A stretch of DNA of 24,228 nt, taken from IMG/VR virus record IMGVR_UViG_2541047889_000005, positions 1-24,228 of that record. One strand, 5' to 3'. Source of the stretch: a virus (lineage: Duplodnaviria > Heunggongvirae > Uroviricota > Caudoviricetes). Both the position numbers and the translations under genes were made by a program. Numbering within the stretch: position 1 is the first letter of the stretch; every line of letters begins with the position of its first letter. The notes under the pieces were generated by a model. It made no database searches and had not been told where the DNA came from. It saw only the letters and a list, made by a program, of their open reading frames with translations. Shown here in pieces: positions 1,665-24,228 of the stretch.

Positions 1665-2565
1665 CCGTTCCCCCGTTGGTCACGCTCCACTCCGTACATG
1701 ATGCCGCCTGCGTTTTGTTCAGGACCACATCCGCCAGCGGGGAAGCCAGTTCCACACGCTGAACACCCTCAACATGCAGCGCGGCAAAAATGGCGCTACG
1801 GCGAATATCCCGACCAAGCCGCGTCTGACTGGCAATGTACCTCTGCAGGCTGGCTTTTGCCGCTGCCATTACCGGCTCTGCTTCCGGCCCCGGATAGAGA
1901 AAAATGGTAGCTTCCACGCGGTACGGGATGATTTCTGCACTGCGAACCGTCAGACGGTCAGCCACCGGGCGGACGTTCTCACTGTTCAGGGCTTTCTCCA
2001 CCACATCCAGCAGGTCTTTTTCTGCTGTTCCATCGCCTTCGCGGCTAAGGACAGTCAGCACCACCTCTGCAGGTGCCGGGCTGGTTGCACTGGCATCCGC
2101 CACCCGACCGTCGGCGCTTCGGGCATGAAATTCATAAGCTGCAGTTGGCCCCGCAACTGAAAGCCCCTCAAAGGCTGCAGGCACACGCAGGCGTAACGCT
2201 TCATCGCTTTCCATCACAGCTGCAACGGGCGGCACAGCGTCATCATCAGCAGGCGTCACCGTCAGGCGTTTCACGTTGTAGTTGGCAGCGAGCTGGTCCA
2301 GATCGCCGCCCATCGCGTAAGCCACCATCACCGCCTGCGCGGCTTCGTTAATGCGCTGGCGCAGAAGCAACTCACGGTAAGCGTTCTCCTGCAGCAATTT
2401 GGTGACGGGTTCAGATTCCAGTTCCAGCGTGCGGATCACAGCCTCCTGCTCATCTTTCGGATGAAGCGCCACAAATTCTGCCTTGCGTTCGGCAAGCAGC
2501 GTCTCAAAGTTCGGCACATCCACAATCTGCGGCGCAGGCAACTGCGAAAGGTCAATCACTGCCAT
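1657..2565 (-). CDS. J: Baseplate protein gpJ (gp6-like wedge)
   Basis: ORF 1657..2604; likely start at the ATG giving MAVIDLSQLPAPQIVDV..., matching the P2 gpJ N-terminus; overlaps the W 3' end. Confidence 0.8.
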   Translation of the reverse strand: MAVIDLSQLPAPQIVDVPNFETLLAERKAEFVALHPKDEQEAVIRTLELESEPVTKLLQENAYRELLLRQRINEAAQAVMVAYAMGGDLDQLAANYNVKRLTVTPADDDAVPPVAAVMESDEALRLRVPAAFEGLSVAGPTAAYEFHARSADGRVADASATSPAPAEVVLTVLSREGDGTAEKDLLDVVEKALNSENVRPVADRLTVRSAEIIPYRVEATIFLYPGPEAEPVMAAAKASLQRYIASQTRLGRDIRRSAIFAALHVEGVQRVELASPLADVVLNKTQAASCTEWSVTNGGTDE

Positions 2566-2911
2566 TCTCTGCTCCTGTTGATACGGAAAGGGACACAGGC
2601 ACACCGTTATTCCGCCGCCCGGTCAGCTCCACCACCATTGAACCGTCAAAATTGCTGTTGATGGTGATGGAATCCAGCGTCAGCCGTGGCTCCCAGCGAC
2701 TCAGTGCCACATACACAGCCGACATGACCTGCAGGCGTAACGCCGGATTTTGTGGCTGATCTATTAAAGCCGACAGCAGGGAACCATATTCCCGGCGGGC
2801 AATGCGGCTACCCTGCGGTGTCAGCAGAATGTCCCGCACCGACTGGCGCAGATGGTCAATATCAGTAATAGCTTTACCGCTGGTATTGTTCATCCCGATA
2901 TAAAGCGTCAT
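2552..2911 (-). CDS. W: Baseplate wedge protein gpW (gp25-like)
   Basis: 119-aa ORF MTLYIGMNNTSGKAITDIDHLRQSVRDILLTPQGSRI...; start overlaps V stop (ATGA). Confidence 0.8.
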   Translation of the reverse strand: MTLYIGMNNTSGKAITDIDHLRQSVRDILLTPQGSRIARREYGSLLSALIDQPQNPALRLQVMSAVYVALSRWEPRLTLDSITINSNFDGSMVVELTGRRNNGVPVSLSVSTGAENGSD

Positions 2912-3486
2912 ACCGGGCCTCCGGTTGTGTCGCCGCCTTTCAGGACGCCAGTATGCTGATGCGCATCAACCACGATCCCGTTAGAACTCATTGCACCGCC
3001 GCCCTGGGTAACGCCACCATTGATCACCACTTCGCTGTTAATACGCGTGCGGTCAGCCTCCAGCACAAACTCACTGGTTTTCAGGGTGATGTTGTCGGCA
3101 GCCTCAATGACCATGGATTTGATGCCCCTGACATACCAGCGCCCGGTGGCGGGTTCGTATTCAAACCAGCCACCATCAGGATGTTCTGTCACGCAGGCTT
3201 CCGCCGACGTTGACGGCGGTGCGAACTGATTCGAATAGATGGCGGGCAACGCAAAGGCGGTTTCCAGATTGCCACCCAGGCTGAACAGCACAACCTGCTC
3301 GCCCACAGACGGTTTCCACCAGGTGCGCGATTTGCCCGCGCGCAGTGTCAGCCAGTTAATCCAGTTGGTTTCAAGGTCGCCCGTTTTCACCCGGCAAAGC
3401 CAGTTCTCCCGGTCCACCTCGGTGACTACACCAGTGCGGATCAGGTTGGTGATAAGGCGCATGATTTCAGTCAGTTGTGCATTCAT
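2908..3486 (-). CDS. V: Baseplate spike/assembly protein gpV
   Basis: ORF 2908..3564; probable start at ATG 3486 (MNAQLTEIMRLITNLIRTGVVTEVD...), which aligns with the P2 gpV N-terminus; AAGGA RBS upstream. Confidence 0.8.
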   Translation of the reverse strand: MNAQLTEIMRLITNLIRTGVVTEVDRENWLCRVKTGDLETNWINWLTLRAGKSRTWWKPSVGEQVVLFSLGGNLETAFALPAIYSNQFAPPSTSAEACVTEHPDGGWFEYEPATGRWYVRGIKSMVIEAADNITLKTSEFVLEADRTRINSEVVINGGVTQGGGAMSSNGIVVDAHQHTGVLKGGDTTGGPV

Positions 3487-3534
3487 GAGAGCGATCCTTG
3501 CACAACCGGGTAGAGTGATGTAATACAGAGCGTA

Positions 3535-3555
3535 TGTATGGAGAACCACACAAAA
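3535..3555. promoter_or_regulatory. Candidate late-promoter activator site (TGT-N12-ACA dyad; Ogr/B-type)
   Basis: tgtatggagaaccacacaaaa; shares TGT-N6-AACCACACAAA with the site at 10361-10380 in the O/P divergent region. Confidence 0.35.
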
Positions 3556-3581
3556 GAGAAACAATTTCTAAGGTATTTAAG

Positions 3582-13261: not shown

Positions 13262-14266
13262 TTATTCTTCTGAATCATCATAAACATCCATTCCTTCGGT
13301 CTGATTTCTAATATAAGAAGTCCCCATAGAATTAGCAATCGCAGTCCGAATTAACCCTACATGAGTGAAAAACACCCCTAACCTAGCACGCTTTAACTCA
13401 GACTCATCATCATAGTCATCTTCATTACTTATAATTCTTCTAACCATTGCCTTATCTTCGTCAATAGCCGAAGGTAGCCCACTCTTTAAAGCGTCAATAC
13501 ACTCACCTACAGTTATAATTTTATTTTTAATTAATTCAGAAAGCAAATCATCATAATTTTCATCATCAGATTTATTATCAGGTGGTAATTCACTTGCAGC
13601 TATCATTTTCAGCAATTCTACGTCAAGCATAGTTCCTCTATCTAGTCTGCTTGTCTCAACATACCCCTCACGCTCTGATAACACTCTTTCAAATTCGAAA
13701 TCAACGACTTCAAGCAAAGCAGATACTCTATTAATTGCTCGCCTAAGAGGAAGTGGAACACTTTGCTCTTTTTTGTATTGCAGTTTATGAGATGCTGCAG
13801 CCCAAATATGCTGAGAAAGCGTTCGTATTTGCACCTCCACTTTCATATTTTTAAAATCACTAAAGGATGGAACTCTTAGCCATTCTTCTGGAGGTTGTAT
13901 TACATAATGATGAGATTGGTACCCAAATCTATCCTCATCCAGTTCATCAAGTTTATTCTCTTGCTTCAAAATAATGAAATGTTCTTTCAGACAAGATATA
14001 ACCTTTTCAACATCTCGCTTAAATAGCATTATTAATCGGATTCCAACATAATCATCCAAGTCAACTATTGACTCAATCTTTAGAGGTTTTCGGTTATCCT
14101 TATTAATAATAGAACTTAATGTTTTGACACGGCTTTCAATTGGAACCCCTAAAGACAATTTATTCTCCGACAAAATAACATCAATTTGCTCAACCATAAC
14201 TCGTCTGAACAATTCCGCAACTGAGCCGTAAATTGAATGCTGTTCTTTTAATTCTTCGTCTGTCAT
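13262..14266 (-). CDS. RelA/SpoT-fold nucleotidyltransferase (small alarmone synthetase-like; candidate toxSAS/CapRel-like fused toxin-antitoxin)
   Basis: 334 aa; synthetase-fold motifs ESRVKTLSSIINK, DYVGIRLIMLF, FGYQSHHYVI, EVQIRTLSQHIWAAASHKLQYK; about 130-aa acidic C-terminal extension; AT-rich; lies between portal gene and cos. Confidence 0.7.
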   Translation of the reverse strand: MTDEELKEQHSIYGSVAELFRRVMVEQIDVILSENKLSLGVPIESRVKTLSSIINKDNRKPLKIESIVDLDDYVGIRLIMLFKRDVEKVISCLKEHFIILKQENKLDELDEDRFGYQSHHYVIQPPEEWLRVPSFSDFKNMKVEVQIRTLSQHIWAAASHKLQYKKEQSVPLPLRRAINRVSALLEVVDFEFERVLSEREGYVETSRLDRGTMLDVELLKMIAASELPPDNKSDDENYDDLLSELIKNKIITVGECIDALKSGLPSAIDEDKAMVRRIISNEDDYDDESELKRARLGVFFTHVGLIRTAIANSMGTSYIRNQTEGMDVYDDSEE

Positions 14267-14383
14267 CTATCTTACCTAACTTATATAAATGAATCAGATA
14301 TAAAACATTGCATAATTTTAATTCAAGTGGACAACATATAAATTATCCGATCTAAACCACTTAAACAACAGGTTTTGCGCGCG

Positions 14384-14402
14384 CTCGTATCCCCGCCACG
14401 CC
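14384..14402 (-). other. cos-like cohesive-end site (P2/186 type)
   Basis: Minus-strand GGCGTGGCGGGGATACGAG; the first 13 nt match my recollection of the P2/186 19-nt cos core (GGCG[A/T]GGCGGGGA...); located next to the portal gene as expected. Confidence 0.5.
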
Positions 14403-14451
14403 TGCCCGCTTTATGTAGTAGTTTTCATGCAGGTGCATGATCTACGCGAAA

Positions 14452-14471
14452 GCCCGCCAGTTCTGGCGGGC
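14452..14471 (-). terminator. GC-rich hairpin downstream of the membrane-protein gene (putative terminator)
   Basis: gcccgccag-tt-ctggcgggc; followed on the minus transcript by UUUCGCG. Confidence 0.4.
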
Positions 14472-14519
14472 CCTAGCAAAAACGATCCTCAAACGATCAT
14501 GCGATCTCATGCAGCATAG

Positions 14520-15362
14520 TCATGCACGATCATTTGACTCAGCATCTGCTGCACGCTTGCTGCGCGAAGATGCACTTTTACTATCAATCTTTCGACAGTT
14601 CTTTCTATCCCTGGCTTCATTTTCTTTAAATTTGTTATATGTCTCAGTATCAAAAAACGAAATTGTTTCAACCTCATCTTTTGGTATGAGCACACGGAAA
14701 TCTTCGATATTAAGCCGAGACATTCCACTTATCACACCACTATCAAGATAATGTTGGTGATAGTTAGTCGTGATACTAATCGTTAGATCATCTTTATCCC
14801 GATATCCGCTTAACATCGGGAGAAGTTCAAGGTGCTCTGAAAGCCCGTTTTCTAACGCCGGACAAGTAACAAGACCAACATAGATTTTGCGAGACGACAG
14901 AGTTGCTATGATCGGAAACTGTCTTGCGGACGCTTCCATGAGTAATGATTCGAAAGCGTTATTACCCACAGCTTTAGCTAAGGCATCCCAGCGACGATCT
15001 CCACGTGATGTGCGTAACTTATTTCCAAAACCTGAAATCGCAGCGAGGACAATTGAAATCATAACCCATGCTATCTGTTTGATTTCATTTATTCTTTGAA
15101 GTTTGTCTTTCGATGAAGACAACATGCCATTAAAACTGTCAGGTGTTAGATTCAAGGCATTAGCCAGCCAACGAAACCCTCCGCTGACGTTCAAAATAAA
15201 GGTGAAAAAACCGCCAAGGAGAAAAAAAACGATACCCCAGGCAGCCACAAAAAAATAAGCGTCCCAGCCGTTGGAACGCTTATATCGGTATCTTGTTGAA
15301 AGTGATAGGTTTACATAAATAAAACCACTAACCAAAATCACTGCTAAAAGTAATGTTGCCAT
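14520..15362 (-). CDS. Hypothetical membrane protein: three N-terminal TM helices plus about 165-aa cytoplasmic domain
   Basis: 280 aa; hydrophobic segments ATLLLAVILVSGFIYV, AYFFVAAWGIVFFLLGGFFTFIL, IAWVMISIVLAAISGF; start overlaps the stop of the upstream 71-aa gene (TAATG). Confidence 0.65.
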   Translation of the reverse strand: MATLLLAVILVSGFIYVNLSLSTRYRYKRSNGWDAYFFVAAWGIVFFLLGGFFTFILNVSGGFRWLANALNLTPDSFNGMLSSSKDKLQRINEIKQIAWVMISIVLAAISGFGNKLRTSRGDRRWDALAKAVGNNAFESLLMEASARQFPIIATLSSRKIYVGLVTCPALENGLSEHLELLPMLSGYRDKDDLTISITTNYHQHYLDSGVISGMSRLNIEDFRVLIPKDEVETISFFDTETYNKFKENEARDRKNCRKIDSKSASSRSKRAADAESNDRA

Positions 15363-16432: not shown

Positions 16433-18847
16433 TTAATACAGGTTTCGCCACTTATCATCTTCCTGCAAACGCTGGTTCCGATAGAAGATACGCAGGCCTG
16501 CTCCTGACGGAATACTGCCGCCGCGAAGGAGTAAATCGACCTCTTTCTCGCTACCATCAAATCCTCTGGACTTCAGCTCATAGACTAGCTGCAGTCGCTG
16601 ATGGTCTGTAATTCGCTGTTTGTAGTCTTTACGCCGTTTCGGTTTAACCAGGCGTAACCTTGCTGCCAGTTCCCGGCGCTCTTTTTTGCTCATACTGTGC
16701 AGGTAATCGTGCAACTGCTTGTCATCCATGCGGGTAATGTCCGTTCTGGTGCCCCCATCAGCTGATTTATCTTTCTCCTGTTGGTTCAAATTTTCAGCAA
16801 GGGGACAGTTATTGCCACGAGTCCAAGGGGCGCAAGCGCCCTGGTCGGCTGCCGCCTCCTGAATGTCAACGGCCTTACGAACCATTTTCCACTTCACCGC
16901 ATGAGTGCAGATCTTGCCCTCTGCAATGGGTGACCAGATGCCATAAATACGAATACCGTGATCGCCATAGGCGGTCGGCTCTTCGTTGATTTCATAAGCG
17001 GTTCTGATGAGGTGATATTTGCGGGGAACCAGTACGCCGCCCTGCTTCATGATGTAGGTGGCAAAACAGCCAGCATCAGCGGCAGCCAGGATGGCATCAA
17101 GGCGCGGGTTATCCAGTACCGGCGCACCTGCTTTTTTGTCCCCCTGTTGCCTTGCCGCCTGACCAGCCAGCAATCGCAGTTCACGGTAAGCCTGACGCCC
17201 CGGAATGCCAAAGAAGCGGAATTGCTGAACACGATGCAGAGACGCCCAGGCATTAACGTATTCGGCGTTATCACGCAGGGATTTACCCGTTTCCTTGCTG
17301 ATCTCGCCAGCCAGACCACGCCCGTCAATGTTCTTACTGATGTATTTCGCGATGTAGCTTGTTGGCGTACCTTTGCGCGGGTTTATCAGCTCAGACTTAA
17401 AGCGTGGTTCCGTGTTATTACCCAGCTCCTCGCGGTCTTCACGAATGGCAAACTTACGCAACAAAGCAGTAATGGCGCGGCGATCTTTTTTGCGCATAAA
17501 ACACAACAGGTGCCAGTGAACTGTACCGTCATGATGCGGCTCAGCCACCCGCACGCCATACCAGCGTAATCCGGCTTTGTGCATCGCCTTACGAAATGCA
17601 GCAAACATACCGACCAGATAATCACTGCTTTGTCTTACCGTCGCATTTGTCCAGGTCGGGTTGGGCCTGCCGTTATTTAGCGTGGAATGGAAACGTGACG
17701 GACAGGTGATGGTGTAGAAAACGGCGCAGTCACCGCGCATTTCCGCGATAAGCTCCAGACCTTTAACACAGGCCATCATCTCATTGCGGCGATGCGCAGG
17801 GTTGCTGCTGCTGGCGTTTACCACGTCTTCCATATCCAGCGTGTCGCCGTCTTCGTTCACCAGTTCATGAGAACGGAAAAACTCCAGCGACTTACGGCGC
17901 TGCTCACGTTTATGCATCACGGCTTCATAGCTGACATAGGGAGATGCTTTTTTGCTGACCAGGCAAACAGCACGCAACTGCTCTTCCCGCCATTCGCAAC
18001 GCATCTTCCATAATTTCCGATACCACCAGTCGGCGCATAACATACGCGCCAGCGAACCCGGAATGAGTTCATAAGGCACGGGTTTACGGCGGTTTCTTTT
18101 CCGACGGAGTTGCTCAAACGCAGGCGGGATAACATCCAGACGCAGGGTTTCCGCTGCCACCTTTTCCCATGTCTTGCGGATTTCTTCTGGCGTAACATCA
18201 TCGGTGGCATACAAATCGCCACAAGCTGTATCAAGGCACATGCTCATATGCGCAGCTACCAAGGTGGACAGGCGTTTCACCTGATCCTGACTCATTTCAG
18301 GCAGGATCAGCAGGCCGTCCAGCCCTTCATGGCTTGCCATAAAGCGAAAAGAAGTGGATAGCTGACTGTCGCGTACATGCTCCAGTCGTTCCAAGCATGG
18401 CTTAATCGTCTCACGCAAATAGCGGGAATAAGCCTTTGGCCTGCCCAGGCTGCTGAAGTATTTAATACGTTGCATCAGCGGCTTGCTGATATGGGAAGGC
18501 TGGGCGTTGACGTCCGCCAGAATGGCCATGTCTGGATTAAAACGCTGCTGCTCATGCGCCAGCTTTGCCCGGCTAATTAGCTTATCCTGCTCCATTTCGC
18601 GTTGGACAGGATCACGGGATTCATTAAAGAAATAACGCTCCCAGACCTGATCACTCAGTGCCTCGCGGCGCAGTTGTTCCTGCTCGTTATCGGCAGCGTA
18701 CAGAGTGATCAGGTTTGAAAGCGCAGAAACCGGCGCAACTTCCGCCGGGTCCAGATAAGGGTTAATGGCCTTTTTCGGGCTGTTCCATGAGAATGCTGCG
18801 GCGACCTCGTTAAAGCCGCTGCAGTTGTTCATATCAGCATGGCTCAT
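16433..18847 (-). CDS. A: Replication initiation protein gpA (rolling-circle endonuclease)
   Basis: ORF 16433..18874; probable ATG at 18847 overlapping the dam stop (ATGA); about 800 aa as in P2/186 gpA. Confidence 0.8.
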
Positions 18848-19701
18848 GCACGCACTCCGTACACGACGGAACAATCCACGCCACGCGAAGGATCAAATCC
18901 TACCCAGCAGCGCGGCCCGGAAACAGCGATGATTTCTGTTGCAGATTTACTCTCACCAGCTGCCACGCCGATGCTGCGTTTTGCCTTGATGTAGTGGTGA
19001 GTAAAATTGCGATACAGCGAACGGATCAGGGGTGTGTCACTGTTAGAAACAATGACCGGATGACCTTCAGATGATCGATGTTCAAGAACGGATGCCAGGT
19101 GATACTGGTCATCTTCAGTGAAGCCATCAGTGTGATAGCCGGAAAACGTACCGTCATAAGGCGGATCGCAATACACCACATCCCCCGCCTTCAACATCGC
19201 CAGCGTTTCATCAAAGCTGGCGCAGATAAACGTTGCCCGCTGGGCTTTCTCTGCAAATGCGCGAATTTCTTTTTCAGGGAAATACGGATTTTTATAATTA
19301 CCGTAGGGAATGTTGAAATACCCGCTCTTGTTATAGCGACATAGCCCACGGTAACCATGACGATTGAGATACAGAAAATATACCGCTTTCATGAAATCAG
19401 TAATTTCAGTGGAGTAATTAAACTCCTGCCTTATGTTGTAATAAGCCACCTCTCTGTTTGCTTCCTCAAATAAAGCTCTGGCACGAGATATAAACGCCTC
19501 ACAATCAGCAGCAACCTTTTTATAGAGGTTGATTAAATCAGGATTAATATCCGCAACCAGATAGCTGGGGTAATCCGTCTCCATCATCACAGCACAAGAA
19601 CCCGCGAAAGGTTCAACCAGTCGCGTGCCAGCAGGAAGGTATTTTTTCAGTTCGGACATAATGGTGGTTTTATTACCCGCCCATTTCAGGATGGTGCTCA
19701 T
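18844..19701 (-). CDS. dam: DNA adenine methyltransferase (Dam-like, D12 class N6-adenine MTase)
   Basis: ORF 18844..19773; ATG at 19701 with AGGAGG RBS; motifs [16 protein letters not shown] and catalytic DPPY (VYCDPPYDG). Confidence 0.85.
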
Positions 19702-20000
19702 ACAGCACCTCCTGCAATAACATATCCTAAAGCTTCTAATGGGGTTAATGAGCGAATTGATAGCATCACCCATTGTTCTGAAACTGCCATGACGTCATTA
19801 ACCGGAAGCACATGAGAGATAACCGCGGCCCATTCCCTACCCGTAAATACGCCATGCTTCCATTCGCAAAGAGAAAGAACATCACCAACTTTATAGCCAC
19901 GATCGTCTTTACGAAGTTCAGCCGTCTTTTGACCTGCAACCACAGCGTTGAAATACTTAGGTGCAATTTTTAATTGATGGATACGCACAGCCCCTGTCAT
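19698..20000 (-). CDS. Hypothetical phage protein (about 100 aa; possible ASCH/PUA-like fold)
   Basis: ORF 19698..20060; ATG at 20000 with GGAGG RBS; [42 protein letters not shown]; fold assignment is my guess only. Confidence 0.5.
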
Positions 20001-20224
20001 ACAGCACCTCCGTTGTAATGTTTGCCTTTCAGCTCTGCGATTTCCTGACAGGTAATGCAAAGCTGCACTCCTGGAATGGCGCGGCGGCGTGCTGGCGGAA
20101 TTGGCGCTTCACATTCAATGCAAAGCACGCGAGACACGCCCGGTGTTTTGGCACGGGCAGCACGGATATGGCGCTGGCGTTCTTCTTCAACGCGCTGCTG
20201 TACGAGATCCATTGCATCAGCCAT
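19997..20224 (-). CDS. TraR/DksA-family C4 zinc-finger protein
   Basis: 75 aa; CIEC-x17-CITC (C-x2-C-x17-C-x2-C) typical of phage/plasmid TraR-DksA proteins. Confidence 0.75.
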
Positions 20225-21287: not shown

Positions 21288-21797
21288 TCACAGCAAACCG
21301 AATGAAGCACCGAGGCCAGTCACGGTATCAACTGCACTCGCCATCGCAGGATTAGCCTGTAAACGGGCCTGCAATGAAACAGCCGCCAGCGCCATCAGTC
21401 GTGTTACAGAGTTAATGCTGCTGATAGCATCACGACGACCTGCACTGGTTTTTACATCGCCAGATACCGCACCTGCAGCAACACGCCCGATCTCTGCGGT
21501 TGCACTCATGACGTAATGTGGCAGTTTCTCTTTTGCTACCTCATTAATCGGTACACATGGCAGACAATGAATCTGTGCCAGAAAACCATCTACCAACGTT
21601 GAATCTTCAGTCAGATCGGTAAGCAGCCAGATTTCTGGTGCGGTTAATAAATGAGGTTGAGCTGGGTTCAGCTTGTTCCGCAGAATCTGCACATTCATGC
21701 CCGCACGTTCTGCCAGTTGCACCAGATTGTGGCGCAGTGCGAATGCACGACAGGCTTCATCAAAATGTGGATGTTTGGAAACTTGGTAATCAAACAT
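21288..21797 (-). CDS. cII: CII-like lysogeny-establishment transcriptional activator (coliphage 186 type)
   Basis: ORF 21288..21806; ATG at 21797 gives a 169-aa protein [45 protein letters not shown]... with an HTH; resembles 186 CII as I recall it. Confidence 0.7.
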
Positions 21798-21861
21798 GGT
21801 TTTCAACTCCGAACTTATCGCAAAATCGAACTCAGCGTCTTATTGCGAAAATAGACGTCTA

Positions 21862-22065: not shown

Positions 22066-22210
22066 AAGGCAACATTCCTTCTAGATATGGCTTGTGGCGA
22101 GCCGTTGTTTGTCGTGATTAGTAGTGAAGGCTCCAAAAGAACACTTCTGGTTCAACTTTAAGATCGCTTTTGGAATCTGTCAACGAATTTTGGATTTCTT
22201 TGGAGGACTT
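22066..22210. promoter_or_regulatory. Lysis-lysogeny switch region (face-to-face lytic and lysogenic promoters and operators)
   Basis: About 145-bp AT-rich divergent intergenic region between apl (minus) and cI (plus), as in 186 pR/pL; individual promoters and operators not resolved. Confidence 0.45.
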
Positions 22211-22780
22211 GTGGATTTCAATAGCGGCGGTAAGAAAGCCATAGAACGTTTAGTTGAAGCATATGGGTTCGGTACTCGTCAGGCTCTCTGTGATCATTTA
22301 GGTGTTTCTAAGAGCACCATGGCAACGCGCTATATGCGTGATATTTTTCCAGCAGATTGGGTAATCCAGTGCGCCCTTGAAACGGGCACCTCGCTTAATT
22401 GGCTAACAACAGGGCATGGTTCAAAGCAAGCATCAGCAAATACAAATACTATAGAAGTAGAAAAATATTTATTGTCTGATGGAGCATTGCAGAAAGACGG
22501 TTTTTATATTTTTGATAAGGGATTTCTACCCTCTACGTTTAAAAAACCTTTTGTCATCACAGATAACAATTCTGAATTTATTTGTGATAAAGAATTTGAT
22601 GATATACGTGATGGTAAATGGGTAATAAGTATTGATGGCGAAATAACGATCCGTGACATTACTCGTTTACCCGGTGGAAGAATCTTCGTCGAGGGTGGAA
22701 ACAGAGTCTTCGAATGCAAGATAGAAGACATTGAAATAATTGGTAAAATTATAAGTTTAACAGTCAAGTATGTTAAATAG
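22211..22780 (+). CDS. cI: Immunity repressor CI (186 type)
   Basis: ORF 22124..22780; probable GTG start at 22211 after a GGAGGA RBS gives about 189 aa; N-terminal HTH (LGVSKSTMATRYMRD...LNWLTTGHG) and a C-terminal domain. Confidence 0.7.
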   Translation: MDFNSGGKKAIERLVEAYGFGTRQALCDHLGVSKSTMATRYMRDIFPADWVIQCALETGTSLNWLTTGHGSKQASANTNTIEVEKYLLSDGALQKDGFYIFDKGFLPSTFKKPFVITDNNSEFICDKEFDDIRDGKWVISIDGEITIRDITRLPGGRIFVEGGNRVFECKIEDIEIIGKIISLTVKYVK

Positions 22781-22795
22781 TACCGGGAGGAAACT

Positions 22796-22987
22796 ATGCT
22801 TGGTAAGGTATTTTTTGTGGTTTTGTCATGTTCTTTGTTATTAAACCCACTAACTACCTATGCTAGAAATTATCCCTGCTCAGGGAAAAAGGGAGGTGTT
22901 TCTCACTGTACCTCAGATGGCAAATTCGTTTGCAATGATGGAACTATTAGTAAATCCAAAAAAATCTGTACTAAAAACTCACGATAA
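22796..22987 (+). CDS. Small secreted cysteine-rich protein (63 aa) between cI and int
   Basis: Strong GGAGG RBS; N-terminal signal peptide [23 protein letters not shown]; four Cys in the mature part; AT-rich. Confidence 0.6.
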
Positions 22988-23175
22988 TTTTTGTTTTTAT
23001 ATCTGCGTCTAAAATAAAAATGAGCCGCAGGTTAACCGCAAAAGTTACATGCTCACATAGCAAAAAGAATAGCCAACTTCATTATGGCTTCAGTGAGATG
23101 TATGGTCGTAGGATTTCATACATTGACACTGGTTATATATACAGTAAAAATGCTCTCTACTGGAGGGCATTTTTT

Positions 23176-24228
23176 ATGGCAGTACGAAAACTCACCACAG
23201 GGAAATGGCTTTGCGAATGTTACCCCGCCGGACGAAGTGGGCGTCGTGTGCGTAAACAATTCGCCACCAAAGGCGAAGCTCTGGCTTTTGAGCGTCACAC
23301 GATGGAAGAAACCGAATCAAAGCCCTGGCTGGGCGAATCAGTGGATCGTCGAACCCTGAAAGACGTGGTTGAGCTATGGTTCAAACTACATGGTAAATCT
23401 CTGACTGCTGGACAGCATGTCTATGACAAATTGCTGCTGATGGTTGACGCTCTAGGCAATCCTCTTGCAACCGATCTCACCTCTAAAATGTTTGCCCACT
23501 ATCGAGATAAACGCCTTACTGGTGAAATCTACTTCAGTGAAAAATGGAAGAAAGGAGCAAGCCCAGTTACTGTTAACCTGGAGCAAAGCCATCTAAGCAG
23601 CGTTTTCAGAGAACTTTCCCGCCTGGGTGAATGGACACTTCCAAACCCATTAGAGAAGATGCGCAAATTCACTATCGCAGAAAAGGAAATGGCATGGCTT
23701 ACACATGAGCAGATCATCGAATTACTGTCTGACTGCAAACGTCAGAACCCAATTCTGGCACTGGTGGTAAAAATATGTCTAAGTACAGGCGCACGTTGGC
23801 GAGAAGCAATCAATCTTACCCGCTCACAGGTCACCAAGTACCGAATCACCTTTGTGAGAACGAAGGGGAAGAAAAACAGAAGCATCCCTATCAGTAAAGA
23901 GCTTTACGAAGAGATCATGGCGCTTGATGGGTTCAATTTCTTCACAGACTGCTATTTTCAATTTTTATCCGTGATGGAAAAAACGTCTATCGTGCTCCCT
24001 CGCGGTCAACTCACACACGTTCTGCGCCATACGTTTGCGGCGCACTTCATGATGTCGGGTGGAAACATTCTGGCCTTACAAAAAATTCTCGGACACCACG
24101 ATATAAAAATGACTATGCGTTACGCACATCTGGCACCGGATCATCTGGAAACGGCGCTCCGTTTCAATCCTCTGGCAACGCTGCCAAGTGGCGACAAAGT
24201 GGCGGCAGCGGTTGGCATTACCCCGTAA
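23176..24228 (+). CDS. int: Tyrosine integrase (P2 family)
   Basis: ORF 23020..24228; ATG at 23176 after a GGAGGG RBS (MAVRKLTTGKWLCECYPAGRSGRRV...); C-terminal catalytic region ...HVLRHTFAAHFMMSGGNILALQKILGHHDIKMTMRYAHL (R-H-R-Y type); stop at the window's right edge. Confidence 0.85.
   Translation: MAVRKLTTGKWLCECYPAGRSGRRVRKQFATKGEALAFERHTMEETESKPWLGESVDRRTLKDVVELWFKLHGKSLTAGQHVYDKLLLMVDALGNPLATDLTSKMFAHYRDKRLTGEIYFSEKWKKGASPVTVNLEQSHLSSVFRELSRLGEWTLPNPLEKMRKFTIAEKEMAWLTHEQIIELLSDCKRQNPILALVVKICLSTGARWREAINLTRSQVTKYRITFVRTKGKKNRSIPISKELYEEIMALDGFNFFTDCYFQFLSVMEKTSIVLPRGQLTHVLRHTFAAHFMMSGGNILALQKILGHHDIKMTMRYAHLAPDHLETALRFNPLATLPSGDKVAAAVGITP

Follow-up and report, generated by a model that had tools for sequence, protein, structure and literature searches.

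Gene content and identity of dam

The window analysed here is a 24,228-nucleotide stretch of DNA from a virus of the class Caudoviricetes (IMG/VR record IMGVR_UViG_2541047889_000005). On its minus strand lies a run of four genes, in which a methyltransferase gene, referred to below as dam, is placed directly upstream of the replication gene A:

16433..18847, minus strand: gene A, encoding gpA, an 804-aa P2-type rolling-circle replication endonuclease (PF05840, Phage_GPA, E 5e-128)
18844..19701, minus strand: dam, encoding a 285-aa Dam-family N6-adenine DNA methyltransferase, stop codon included
19698..20000, minus strand: DUF3850/ASCH-like gene, 100 aa (PF12961, E 1.1e-23), inserted between TraR and dam
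19997..20224, minus strand: TraR/DksA-family zinc-finger gene (PF01258, TIGR02419), the usual upstream neighbour of dam

The dam frame, read directly from the sequence, is intact and full-length from 19701 to 18844. Its product matches PF02086 over the whole profile (positions 1–253 of 253; E 2.8e-76; 257 bits against a cut-off of 22) and TIGR00571 with 320 bits (cut-off 114.85), and carries both an LKWAGNK and a DPPY motif, all of which bears out the sequence-only reading of the gene as a phage-encoded, D12-class, Dam-type adenine methyltransferase. The Pfam match, taken with an NTGA overlap at the dam stop codon in 64 of 77 complete homologues from different species (ATGA in 41, GTGA in 18 and TTGA in 5), shows that neither the assignment nor the overlap is due to chance. 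Against NF008152 (PRK10904), the equivalog model for the chromosomal Dam of Enterobacterales, the protein scores 287.9 bits, below the cut-off of 441, and dam thus belongs to a paralogous phage lineage and is not the host gene.

The start codon, ATG at 19701, is preceded by GGAGG 6 nt upstream, and is supported both by PGAP, which calls the identical 858-nt CDS in relatives, and by the length of the protein, which is 285 aa in all 80 IMG/VR relatives. An in-frame ATG at 19773 was ruled out as the start on these three grounds.

The gene is common. The exact protein is present in NCBI under the name “DNA adenine methylase,” gene A is named “replication endonuclease” by PGAP in relatives, and dam is found in 1238 of 5426 complete E. 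coli genomes, about a quarter, as well as in many Klebsiella phages. At the nucleotide level, it is 95.5% identical to ELphiS00010, annotated as a DNA adenine methyltransferase in Salmonella phage RE-2010 (genus Felsduovirus), where the TraR–dam–A layout has the same 4-nt overlaps as here, without the DUF3850 cassette. The Dam proteins of Felsduovirus and 186-like phages of the P2 family (RE-2010, the Klebsiella ST11/ST258 prophages, and Fels-2) are encoded by the same gene, with 285 aa, 95–96% DNA identity, and allelic differences only. Among 80 Enterobacterales loci scanned from species-representative genomes, gpA lies downstream of dam in 65 and TraR upstream in 58. The dam of the window is the common Dam gene of Fels-2/186-like P2-family (Peduoviridae) prophages of Enterobacterales, already known and annotated.

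Orphan Dam methylases encoded by phages are long familiar, from T2/T4, P1, and the retron Ec67 prophage onwards. The retron Ec67 methylase is reportedly active in vivo, and from its 186-like prophage context we presume it to be the same protein as that encoded by the dam of the window. The retron Ec67 element itself resides in a prophage related to 186 and has a Dam methylase gene (Hsu et al., 1990, as cited in PMC7826664). A literature search on Dam or GATC methylation in P2-like phages, Peduoviridae, and Eco67Dam (P21311) returned nothing, and one on STM2730 returned a single unrelated paper.

None of the neighbouring products, TraR, DUF3850, and gpA, is a nuclease of the restriction-modification type, and no restriction-modification nuclease turned up when the cargo genes, DUF3850, CI, and a small ORF were scanned with Pfam and PADLOC. 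With no restriction enzyme nearby, dam is thus an orphan methylase, and “orphan methyltransferase” is also its best PADLOC model. Several Type II methyltransferase models of PADLOC match as well, and a structural relative, DpnM (M.DpnII of Streptococcus pneumoniae), a D12-class GATC methylase with the fold in common (E 1e-33), belongs to the DpnII restriction-modification system, whereas dam has no accompanying endonuclease. Defence-like cargo is present in the prophage, namely a RelA/SpoT-domain protein at 13262..14266, but it is 4.5 kb distant from dam and part of another module, and the neighbours of dam itself recur across 80 species. We therefore consider it very improbable that dam provides the methylase component of a prophage restriction-modification or other defence system.

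Catalytic and cofactor-binding residues

Four protein motifs can be placed on the gene, from the N-terminus to the C-terminus:

19669..19689, minus strand: N-terminal motif LKWAGNK, residues 5–11, read from the sequence
19594..19608, minus strand: AdoMet-binding motif I, F32-A-G34-S-C36, aligned with F35-V-G37-A-G39 of E. coli Dam (EcoDam)
19291..19356, minus strand: DNA-recognition β-hairpin, residues 116–137, with Y117, R118, L120, R122, P132, and Y136
19156..19167, minus strand: catalytic motif IV, DPPY, residues 179–182, encoded by GATCCGCCTTAT (GAT CCG CCT TAT)

The AF2 model of the protein (pLDDT 71) has EcoDam (2g1p) as its best Foldseek match, with a TM of 0.87, followed by DpnM and T4 Dam; normalised to the target, the TM is 0.87–0.88 against 2g1p/4rtn. 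EcoDam (PDB 2g1p, 4rtj) is 46% identical and colinear over 266 columns, with the fold, DPPY, and the AdoMet-binding residues in common. Relative to EcoDam, the alignment has just three indels, the largest being a 5-aa deletion after DPPY, and the substitutions include N120 to R118, G39 to C36, and R137 to N135. The 5-aa deletion and the changes at N120 and G39 are specific to the phage clade. The protein of the window also has a 22-aa C-terminal tail that EcoDam lacks; the tail (264–285) is conserved and has a pLDDT below 50 in the model. The genomic settings differ too: EcoDam is encoded in the host damX-dam-rpe operon, while the dam of the window is phage-borne.

D179-P-P-Y182 aligns with D181–Y184 of EcoDam, with D, P183, and Y invariant and P182 present in 76 of 79 species homologues, and the cofactor-binding residues F32, G34, and D51 (the acidic D54 of EcoDam) are all conserved in the alignment. 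The catalytic motif substitutions that the sequence-only reading had named as grounds for rejecting an active enzyme do not occur at DPPY; the catalytic and cofactor-binding residues are kept in homologues down to 48% identity, which points to purifying selection on the enzyme.

The one departure in motif I, Cys36 in place of the second glycine, is invariant across the phage clade, and T2 Dam, an active enzyme, is likewise without this glycine (FCGGL). Cys36 could be taken as a mark of a decaying or inactive remnant whose frame is kept only for the translation signals of gene A, as could the terminal residues GVRA (consensus EVRA), which are encoded by the ribosome-binding region of that gene. 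A remnant is, however, scarcely credible for a frame that is intact and full-length, with a set of active-site residues conserved to such a distance, and the methylase of the related retron Ec67 phage is called functional in the title of Hsu et al. (1990).

Target recognition

The residues with which EcoDam reads GATC are K9, Y119, N120, L122, R124, P134, and Y138, with roles as given in PMC4417163. In the alignment, K6 of the LKWAGNK motif corresponds to K9, which contributes to reading the first base pair, while the six hairpin residues Y117, R118, L120, R122, P132, and Y136 correspond to Y119, N120, L122, R124, P134, and Y138 in 2g1p numbering. Six of the seven are thus identical (K9, Y119, L122, R124, P134, and Y138), the seventh being N120, replaced by R118. 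In 105 close homologues and 79 loci from species-representative genomes, the lysine of LKWAGNK is invariant, and K9, R124, and DPPY as a set are invariant or nearly so. The sequence-only reading had held that the target sequence could not be inferred, which was overly cautious: because these six base-contacting residues are the same as in EcoDam, the target can be inferred, and would be GATC. The comparison with the recognition regions of E. coli and T-even Dam that it had proposed shows the hairpin arginine and proline to be common to all. The hairpin has a low pLDDT in the AF2 model, which may reflect the lack of DNA in the model.

Other phage-encoded orphans of the D12 class, T2/T4 Dam and the Dam domain of P1 Dmt, are GATC methylases like the one proposed here and keep the recognition-hairpin arginine and proline as well as DPPY. 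They are otherwise distant: T2 Dam is just 22% identical to the protein of the window, the T-even enzymes come from virulent phages and act on hydroxymethylcytosine DNA, and P1 Dmt is, unlike this protein, a 672-aa fusion.

Some D12-class methyltransferases have targets other than GATC, and the shortfall against NF008152 (288 against 441 bits) together with two changes in the recognition hairpin, N120 to R118 and R137 to N135, would be compatible with an active adenine methyltransferase of the Dam fold that sets a private phage methylation mark at another site. Within the phage clade, however, position 120 alternates, with R in 49 cases and N in 28, and T2/T4 Dam methylates GATC with S at this position. 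The EcoDam base-specific contacts R124, L122, P134, K9, and Y138 are all identical, and the three nearest solved structures are GATC enzymes. An altered specificity is thus unlikely.

GATC occurs 82 times against 82.4 expected, so that the site count has no avoidance or enrichment that could serve as a signature of Dam. The lack of avoidance is as expected for normally methylated DNA.

Gene junctions and probable translational coupling

Both ends of dam overlap the neighbouring genes by four nucleotides, and each start codon lies in a predicted hairpin:

18844..18847, minus strand: ATGA overlap of the dam stop (TGA, 18846..18844) and the gene A start (ATG, 18847..18845)
18844..18866, minus strand: predicted hairpin of 9 bp in which the gene A AUG is paired and the GGAG ribosome-binding site lies partly in the loop
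19698..19701, minus strand: ATGA overlap of the DUF3850 stop and the dam start, read from the sequence
19687..19714, minus strand: predicted hairpin at the dam start, in which the GGAGG ribosome-binding site pairs with dam codons 2–5 and the AUG is in the loop

Positions 18844–18847 read TCAT on the plus strand and hence ATGA on the minus strand, which confirms directly the overlap of the dam stop with the gene A start that had been noted before. The ATGA at the dam stop is invariant in the 80 IMG/VR relatives. The gene A start has GGAG 7 nt upstream, inside dam, and its hairpin has a predicted energy of −12.2 kcal/mol (z −1.96, with 5 of 200 shuffles as stable), so that it is suggestive only as a coupling signal. 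On the basis of the overlap, the GGAG, and this hairpin, translational coupling of dam and A is a reasonable inference.

At the upstream junction, ATGA or GTGA is found in 63 of 79 loci from species-representative genomes. The dam start hairpin is predicted at −18.4 kcal/mol (z −4.67, with none of 200 shuffles as stable) and is kept in relatives with at least about 70% protein identity and missing from more distant ones; neither start-site hairpin is conserved in relatives below about 65% identity. Among 72 distinct upstream junctions in the 79 species loci, changes in the dam hairpin are G-U wobbles only, and none is compensatory. If formed, the two hairpins could mask the start sites until they are opened by translation of the gene before.

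A Dam-gpA fusion made by frameshifting was considered and rejected, as the junction has no slippery sequence and the entries with a fusion are artefacts, being short fragments from assemblies. The idea had its origin in a protein cluster in which Dam and gpA entries are mixed.

The DUF3850 cassette, 299 bp long, is flanked by a perfect 15-bp direct repeat (19698–19712 and 19997–20011). It is found between TraR and dam in 13 of the 80 IMG/VR relatives and is absent from the other 67 and from RE-2010. Besides Dam, the genes found between TraR and A, which act on nucleic acids, are a second D12 methylase, a PAPS-reductase-like gene, an RNase T-like exonuclease, and DUF3850/ASCH. At a rather low probability, the stretch from TraR to A may be a small cassette slot, in which recurring junctions of the form GGAGGTGC-N3/4-ATGA could provide the short homology for gain and loss of cassettes and Dam would be a swappable module. 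If so, Dam would be one module of a co-translated DNA-modification toolkit, and the conserved tail at its C-terminus could serve a phage-specific function, for example in contacting gpA. With its tight overlaps, the TraR-DUF3850-dam-A unit would illustrate in nature how translational coupling can be chained and combined with cassette insertion.

Operon and proposed role

The placement of dam in an early replication operon, also put forward in the sequence-only reading, agrees with the matching layouts of RE-2010 and of the E. coli LR-50 prophage. CI, a cox-like gene, CII, and the remaining early genes are laid out as in phage 186, and a candidate promoter faces the CI repressor gene (22124..22780):

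22155..22183, minus strand: candidate early lytic promoter, TTGACA-17-TAAAGT, 10 of 12 matches in a consensus scan

From there, transcription would run through the cox/apl-like gene, cII, DUF5347, DUF2732, TraR, DUF3850, dam, and A. The stretch from this promoter to dam has no strong predicted terminator. In our proposal, dam would sit in a CI-repressed early lytic operon in which TraR, DUF3850, dam, and A are chained by ATGA overlaps. Judging by this layout, its product is most likely made only during phage replication, in an amount that would be tied to the translation of the neighbouring genes. The phage enzyme may then top up a limiting host Dam, so that the rolling-circle copies of the phage would become fully GATC-methylated before packaging; the methylated DNA could escape restriction enzymes of the next host that act on unmethylated GATC, and hemimethylated phage DNA would be kept from MutH and SeqA. 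Taken as a whole, with a probability of roughly 85%, dam is an active orphan GATC methylase, a standard accessory gene of Fels-2/186-like phages in a CI-repressed operon, for which the topping-up role is our inference.

What the phage gains is not obvious, as the host has a GATC Dam of its own. Protection from restriction, a hypothesis also raised in the sequence-only reading, is put forward here by analogy with other phages. Phage methylases can guard against restriction, and they are also able to set off some abortive-infection systems (bioRxiv 10.1101/2022.08.27.505566).

The control of expression, replication timing, and repair by EcoDam (PMC4417163) lends some plausibility to a mainly regulatory role, in which phage Dam, overproduced on induction or leaky in lysogens, would benefit the phage by altering GATC-dependent events such as the activity of host or phage promoters, SeqA/oriC timing, or mismatch repair; reprogramming of gene expression was likewise a hypothesis of the sequence-only reading. 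Consistent with this, dam lies in one putatively coupled unit with gene A and a TraR/DksA-type RNA-polymerase-binding factor, and the spacer of the predicted early promoter contains a GATC at 22162–22165. With one GATC per about 295 bp, however, a 29-bp promoter would contain one by chance about 1 time in 10, and GATC sites are not clustered in the early regulatory region. We regard a mainly regulatory role as possible though doubtful. The regulatory and protective roles of dam are compatible with each other.

The importance of the gene goes little beyond its correct annotation. Prophages of this kind add a second GATC methylase to the cell, and on induction, this could mask a mutation in the host dam.

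The dam gene and its product

The gene and the elements read within it are all on the minus strand:

19701 (ATG) to 18844 (TGA), minus strand: dam, 285 aa
19689..19669, minus strand: LKWAGNK motif, residues 5-11, read from the sequence
19167..19156, minus strand: DPPY motif, residues 179-182, read from the sequence
18844-18909, minus strand: C-terminal tail, residues 264-285, from the alignment of homologues

The ORF listing of the window stretches dam to an upstream ATG at 19773. We place the start at 19701 because GGAGG lies 6 nt upstream of this ATG, the resulting 858-nt CDS is the PGAP annotation in relatives, and Dam is 285 aa long in 80/80 IMG/VR relatives. At the other end, plus-strand 18844-18847 is TCAT, and the dam TGA and the next ATG therefore overlap as a minus-strand ATGA; this ATG begins an 804-aa protein matching Pfam Phage_GPA (E 5e-128). 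The sequence-only reading, of an ORF with LKWAGNK and DPPY whose stop overlaps the start of replication gene A as ATGA, was accurate, and every element is confirmed at these coordinates.

Its assignment to the Dam-type adenine methyltransferases is likewise supported, by profiles, PDB matches and model superposition. In the profile search the protein matches PF02086 (D12-class N6-adenine methyltransferase) over its full length (E 2.8e-76) and scores 320 bits with TIGR00571 “dam” (cut-off 115); with the chromosomal Dam equivalog model it reaches 288 bits, under the cut-off of 441. Identity is 46% to E. coli K-12 Dam across 266 columns, and 22% to T2 Dam. A PDB sequence search returned E. coli Dam (E 5e-73), DpnM (1e-33) and T4 Dam (8e-17), and the AlphaFold2 model (mean pLDDT 71, pTM 0.74) superposes on E. 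coli Dam structures with TM 0.87-0.88, DpnM and T4 Dam ranking next. All three of these nearest structures are GATC methylases.

This is a known gene with routine annotation. An identical protein is listed in NCBI as “DNA adenine methylase [Escherichia coli]”, and the gene occurs at 90-99.9% identity in 1238/5426 complete E. coli genomes. It also occurs in 53 phage records, among them Salmonella phage RE-2010 (genus Felsduovirus) and many prophages of Klebsiella, where the annotation has a DNA adenine methylase flanked by a TraR/DksA gene and a replication endonuclease. The phage Dam belongs to PHROG 56 (“DNA methyltransferase”) and has 6630 homologues (E <= 1e-30); with E. coli Dam as query, relatives appear in 1161 phage records. 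Scanning species-representative genomes gave 80 loci with dam, in Escherichia, Citrobacter, Enterobacter, Kosakonia, Pantoea, Erwinia, Yersinia, Photorhabdus, Xenorhabdus, Morganella, Providencia and others, with gpA downstream in 65/80 and TraR upstream in 58/80. One paper treats a Fels-2-like Klebsiella prophage that shares this gene order together with the retron Ec67 element, a 186-related prophage encoding a Dam methylase (PMC7826664; Hsu et al. 1990 as cited there).

Target sequence

In E. coli Dam, K9 and Y138 recognize the first base pair, L122 and P134 the third, and R124 the G:C at position 4, while N120 hydrogen bonds to a base and Y119 intercalates (PMC4417163). K9, Y119, N120, L122, R124, P134 and Y138 align with phage K6, Y117, R118, L120, R122, P132 and Y136: six of seven are identical, the exception being N120, which is arginine. 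All seven are fixed in 105 close homologues, always with R at 118, apart from conservative L120 to V/M changes (n=5) and one P132 to S. In a cross-species set of 79 homologues (48-100% identity), K9, R124 and the catalytic D181, P183 and Y184 are invariant (E. coli numbering), P134 is retained in 78, Y119 is replaced by F in 20, the residue that T2/T4 Dam also has, and position 120 is R in 49 and N in 28. The sole contact difference thus falls at a position where the clade itself is variable and where T2/T4 Dam, also a GATC enzyme, has Ser.

From these residues we infer GATC as the target, with a probability of roughly 0.85-0.9. The sequence-only reading had held the target not inferable; the alignment it proposed to the Dam target-recognition region shows otherwise, the GATC-reading residues being kept save for the one at this clade-variable position. 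A different target, for which the arginine at 118 is the one departure among the contacts, is unlikely. So is an inactive remnant, given the intact frame. The Dam of retron Ec67 was reportedly found active in vivo by Hsu and colleagues in 1990.

Early operon and possible role

The window is a P2-family prophage, with these features around the early region:

23020..24228, plus strand: integrase as listed, 402 aa
22124..22780: CI repressor, 186-type
22183..22155, minus strand: promoter-like TTGACA-17-TAAAGT, facing CI
21288..21806: CII homologue
19997-20000, minus strand: TraR/DUF3850 overlap, ATGA
19698..20000, minus strand: DUF3850/ASCH-like gene, between TraR and dam
19698-19701, minus strand: overlap of DUF3850 stop and dam ATG, ATGA
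13262-15362, minus strand: cargo, with the portal gene on one side and the DinI/A end of the early region on the other

After CII come DUF5347, DUF2732, TraR/DksA, DUF3850, dam and A, then portal and late genes. The promoter-like site faces CI and no strong terminator is predicted between it and dam; dam is therefore read as an early-operon gene, most simply as part of a CI-repressed early lytic operon. As listed, the integrase ORF probably extends too far 5': the Pfam Int_N match starts only at residue 109, and complete integrases in related loci have 350-361 aa. Between CI and integrase, a 63-aa ORF (22796-22987, plus strand) has a hydrophobic N-terminus, five cysteines and no PADLOC match.

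The Dam encoded in this operon is an intact enzyme of its family that has the GATC-reading residues; it is an orphan with overlapped frames. Membership in a restriction-modification system is unlikely; neither the neighbour genes nor a PADLOC scan of the cargo genes, DUF3850, CI and a small ORF yielded a restriction endonuclease near dam, for which PADLOC's best model is “orphan methyltransferase”. GATC is neither enriched nor depleted in the window (82 observed, 82.4 expected), about one per 295 bp. Upon induction, dam would be expressed and co-translated with its neighbours, and Dam would methylate GATC on replicating phage DNA. Taking RE-2010's 34 kb as the full phage genome length, each genome would carry roughly 100 sites, so a burst of many copies would add many thousands within minutes, a demand that could outstrip host Dam supply. 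Full methylation would shield phage DNA from enzymes cutting unmethylated GATC and would avoid MutH and SeqA acting on hemimethylated DNA. Alternatively, the phage Dam may have a regulatory role.

Overlapping frames and predicted start-site hairpins

Both ends of dam are overlapped by adjoining genes. The ATGA at its stop is invariant across the 80 IMG/VR relatives; among species homologues, NTGA is found at the stop in 64/77 and ATGA/GTGA at the start in 63/79. This anatomy makes translational coupling of dam with its neighbours well supported. Hairpin masking of the start sites as the mechanism is only suggestive. At the dam start a predicted fold, CAGGAGGUGCU-GUAUG-AGCACC(A)UCCUG (-18.4 kcal/mol, z -4.67, 0/200 shuffles equally stable), has the ribosome-binding site base-paired to codons 2-5; relatives without DUF3850 give -14.3 kcal/mol (z -3.9), and at gene A the AUG is paired within a predicted 9-bp hairpin (-12.2 kcal/mol, z -1.96). 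These hairpins are limited to closer relatives, with wobble changes only.

The 90%-identity protein cluster holding Dam (18847-19701) has an 804-aa replication endonuclease as representative and mixes Dam with gpA. This mixture is probably artefactual, arising from gene calls that were fused in fragmentary assemblies; two homologous proteins, P0063 and P0068, each match both PF02086 and PF05840, and the dam/A ATGA junction has no slippery sequence.

The DUF3850 cassette

The DUF3850 gene looks like a 299-bp insertion separating TraR and dam. A perfect 15-bp direct repeat, GGAGGTGCTGTATGA, comprising a ribosome-binding site plus ATGA junction, lies on both sides of the cassette (within 19698-20011), whose GC content is 44.6% against 55.7% for TraR; phage RE-2010 and 67/80 IMG/VR relatives have one copy, with TraR joined straight to dam. 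A third copy of this junction type, GGAGGCCCGGTATGA (2908-2922, minus strand), joins late baseplate-region ORFs 2908..3564 and 2552..2911, so the same overlap design is used elsewhere in the prophage.

Other genes fill the TraR-to-A interval in three relatives' loci (L086 3097-5868, L088 3174-5865, L091 3816-5694). Such genes mostly form chains through ATGA overlaps, at junctions of a similar kind, GGNGGTGC-N3/4-ATGA. The interval contains DUF3850, an RNase T-like exonuclease, Dam and a PAPS-reductase-like gene in Lonsdalea; a second D12 methylase, Dam and a PAPS-reductase-like gene in an Erwiniaceae genome; and a 62-aa gene, Dam and a 276-aa gene in Atlantibacter. Both dam and the Lonsdalea exonuclease gene start with ATGAGCACCATCCTGA, as though insertion had duplicated the junction.

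Clade-specific features

In the phage Dam clade the second glycine of motif I is replaced by C36, five residues are deleted after DPPY, and the protein ends in a 22-residue tail (conserved W266, G268, D270, G274, D276, V279 and V283), which E. coli Dam lacks. The tail has pLDDT < 50 in the AlphaFold2 model. Its end (consensus EVRA, here GVRA) is encoded by the ribosome-binding region of gene A, an overlap that may explain part of its conservation.

Cargo module and local GATC cluster

The cargo resembles a defence or toxin module of the toxic alarmone-synthetase type, in the hotspot where P2 phages usually carry cargo. Its 334-aa protein begins with a RelA/SpoT nucleotidyltransferase domain (PF04607, E 7.5e-20) and is PADLOC candidate PDC-S33; the 280-aa protein upstream of it matches phrog_3630, without an assigned function. 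At this position the E. coli LR-50 relative instead has a P-loop NTPase. Upstream of the RelA/SpoT gene lies a GATC cluster (14267-14531): five sites in a 253-bp intergenic stretch (14349, 14439, 14484, 14495 and 14503) and one at 14528, with ≈0.9 expected. The clustered sites fall within short repeats of the GCATGATCG type, adjoining a terminator-like hairpin, GGGCCCGCCAGAACTGGCGGGCTTT.
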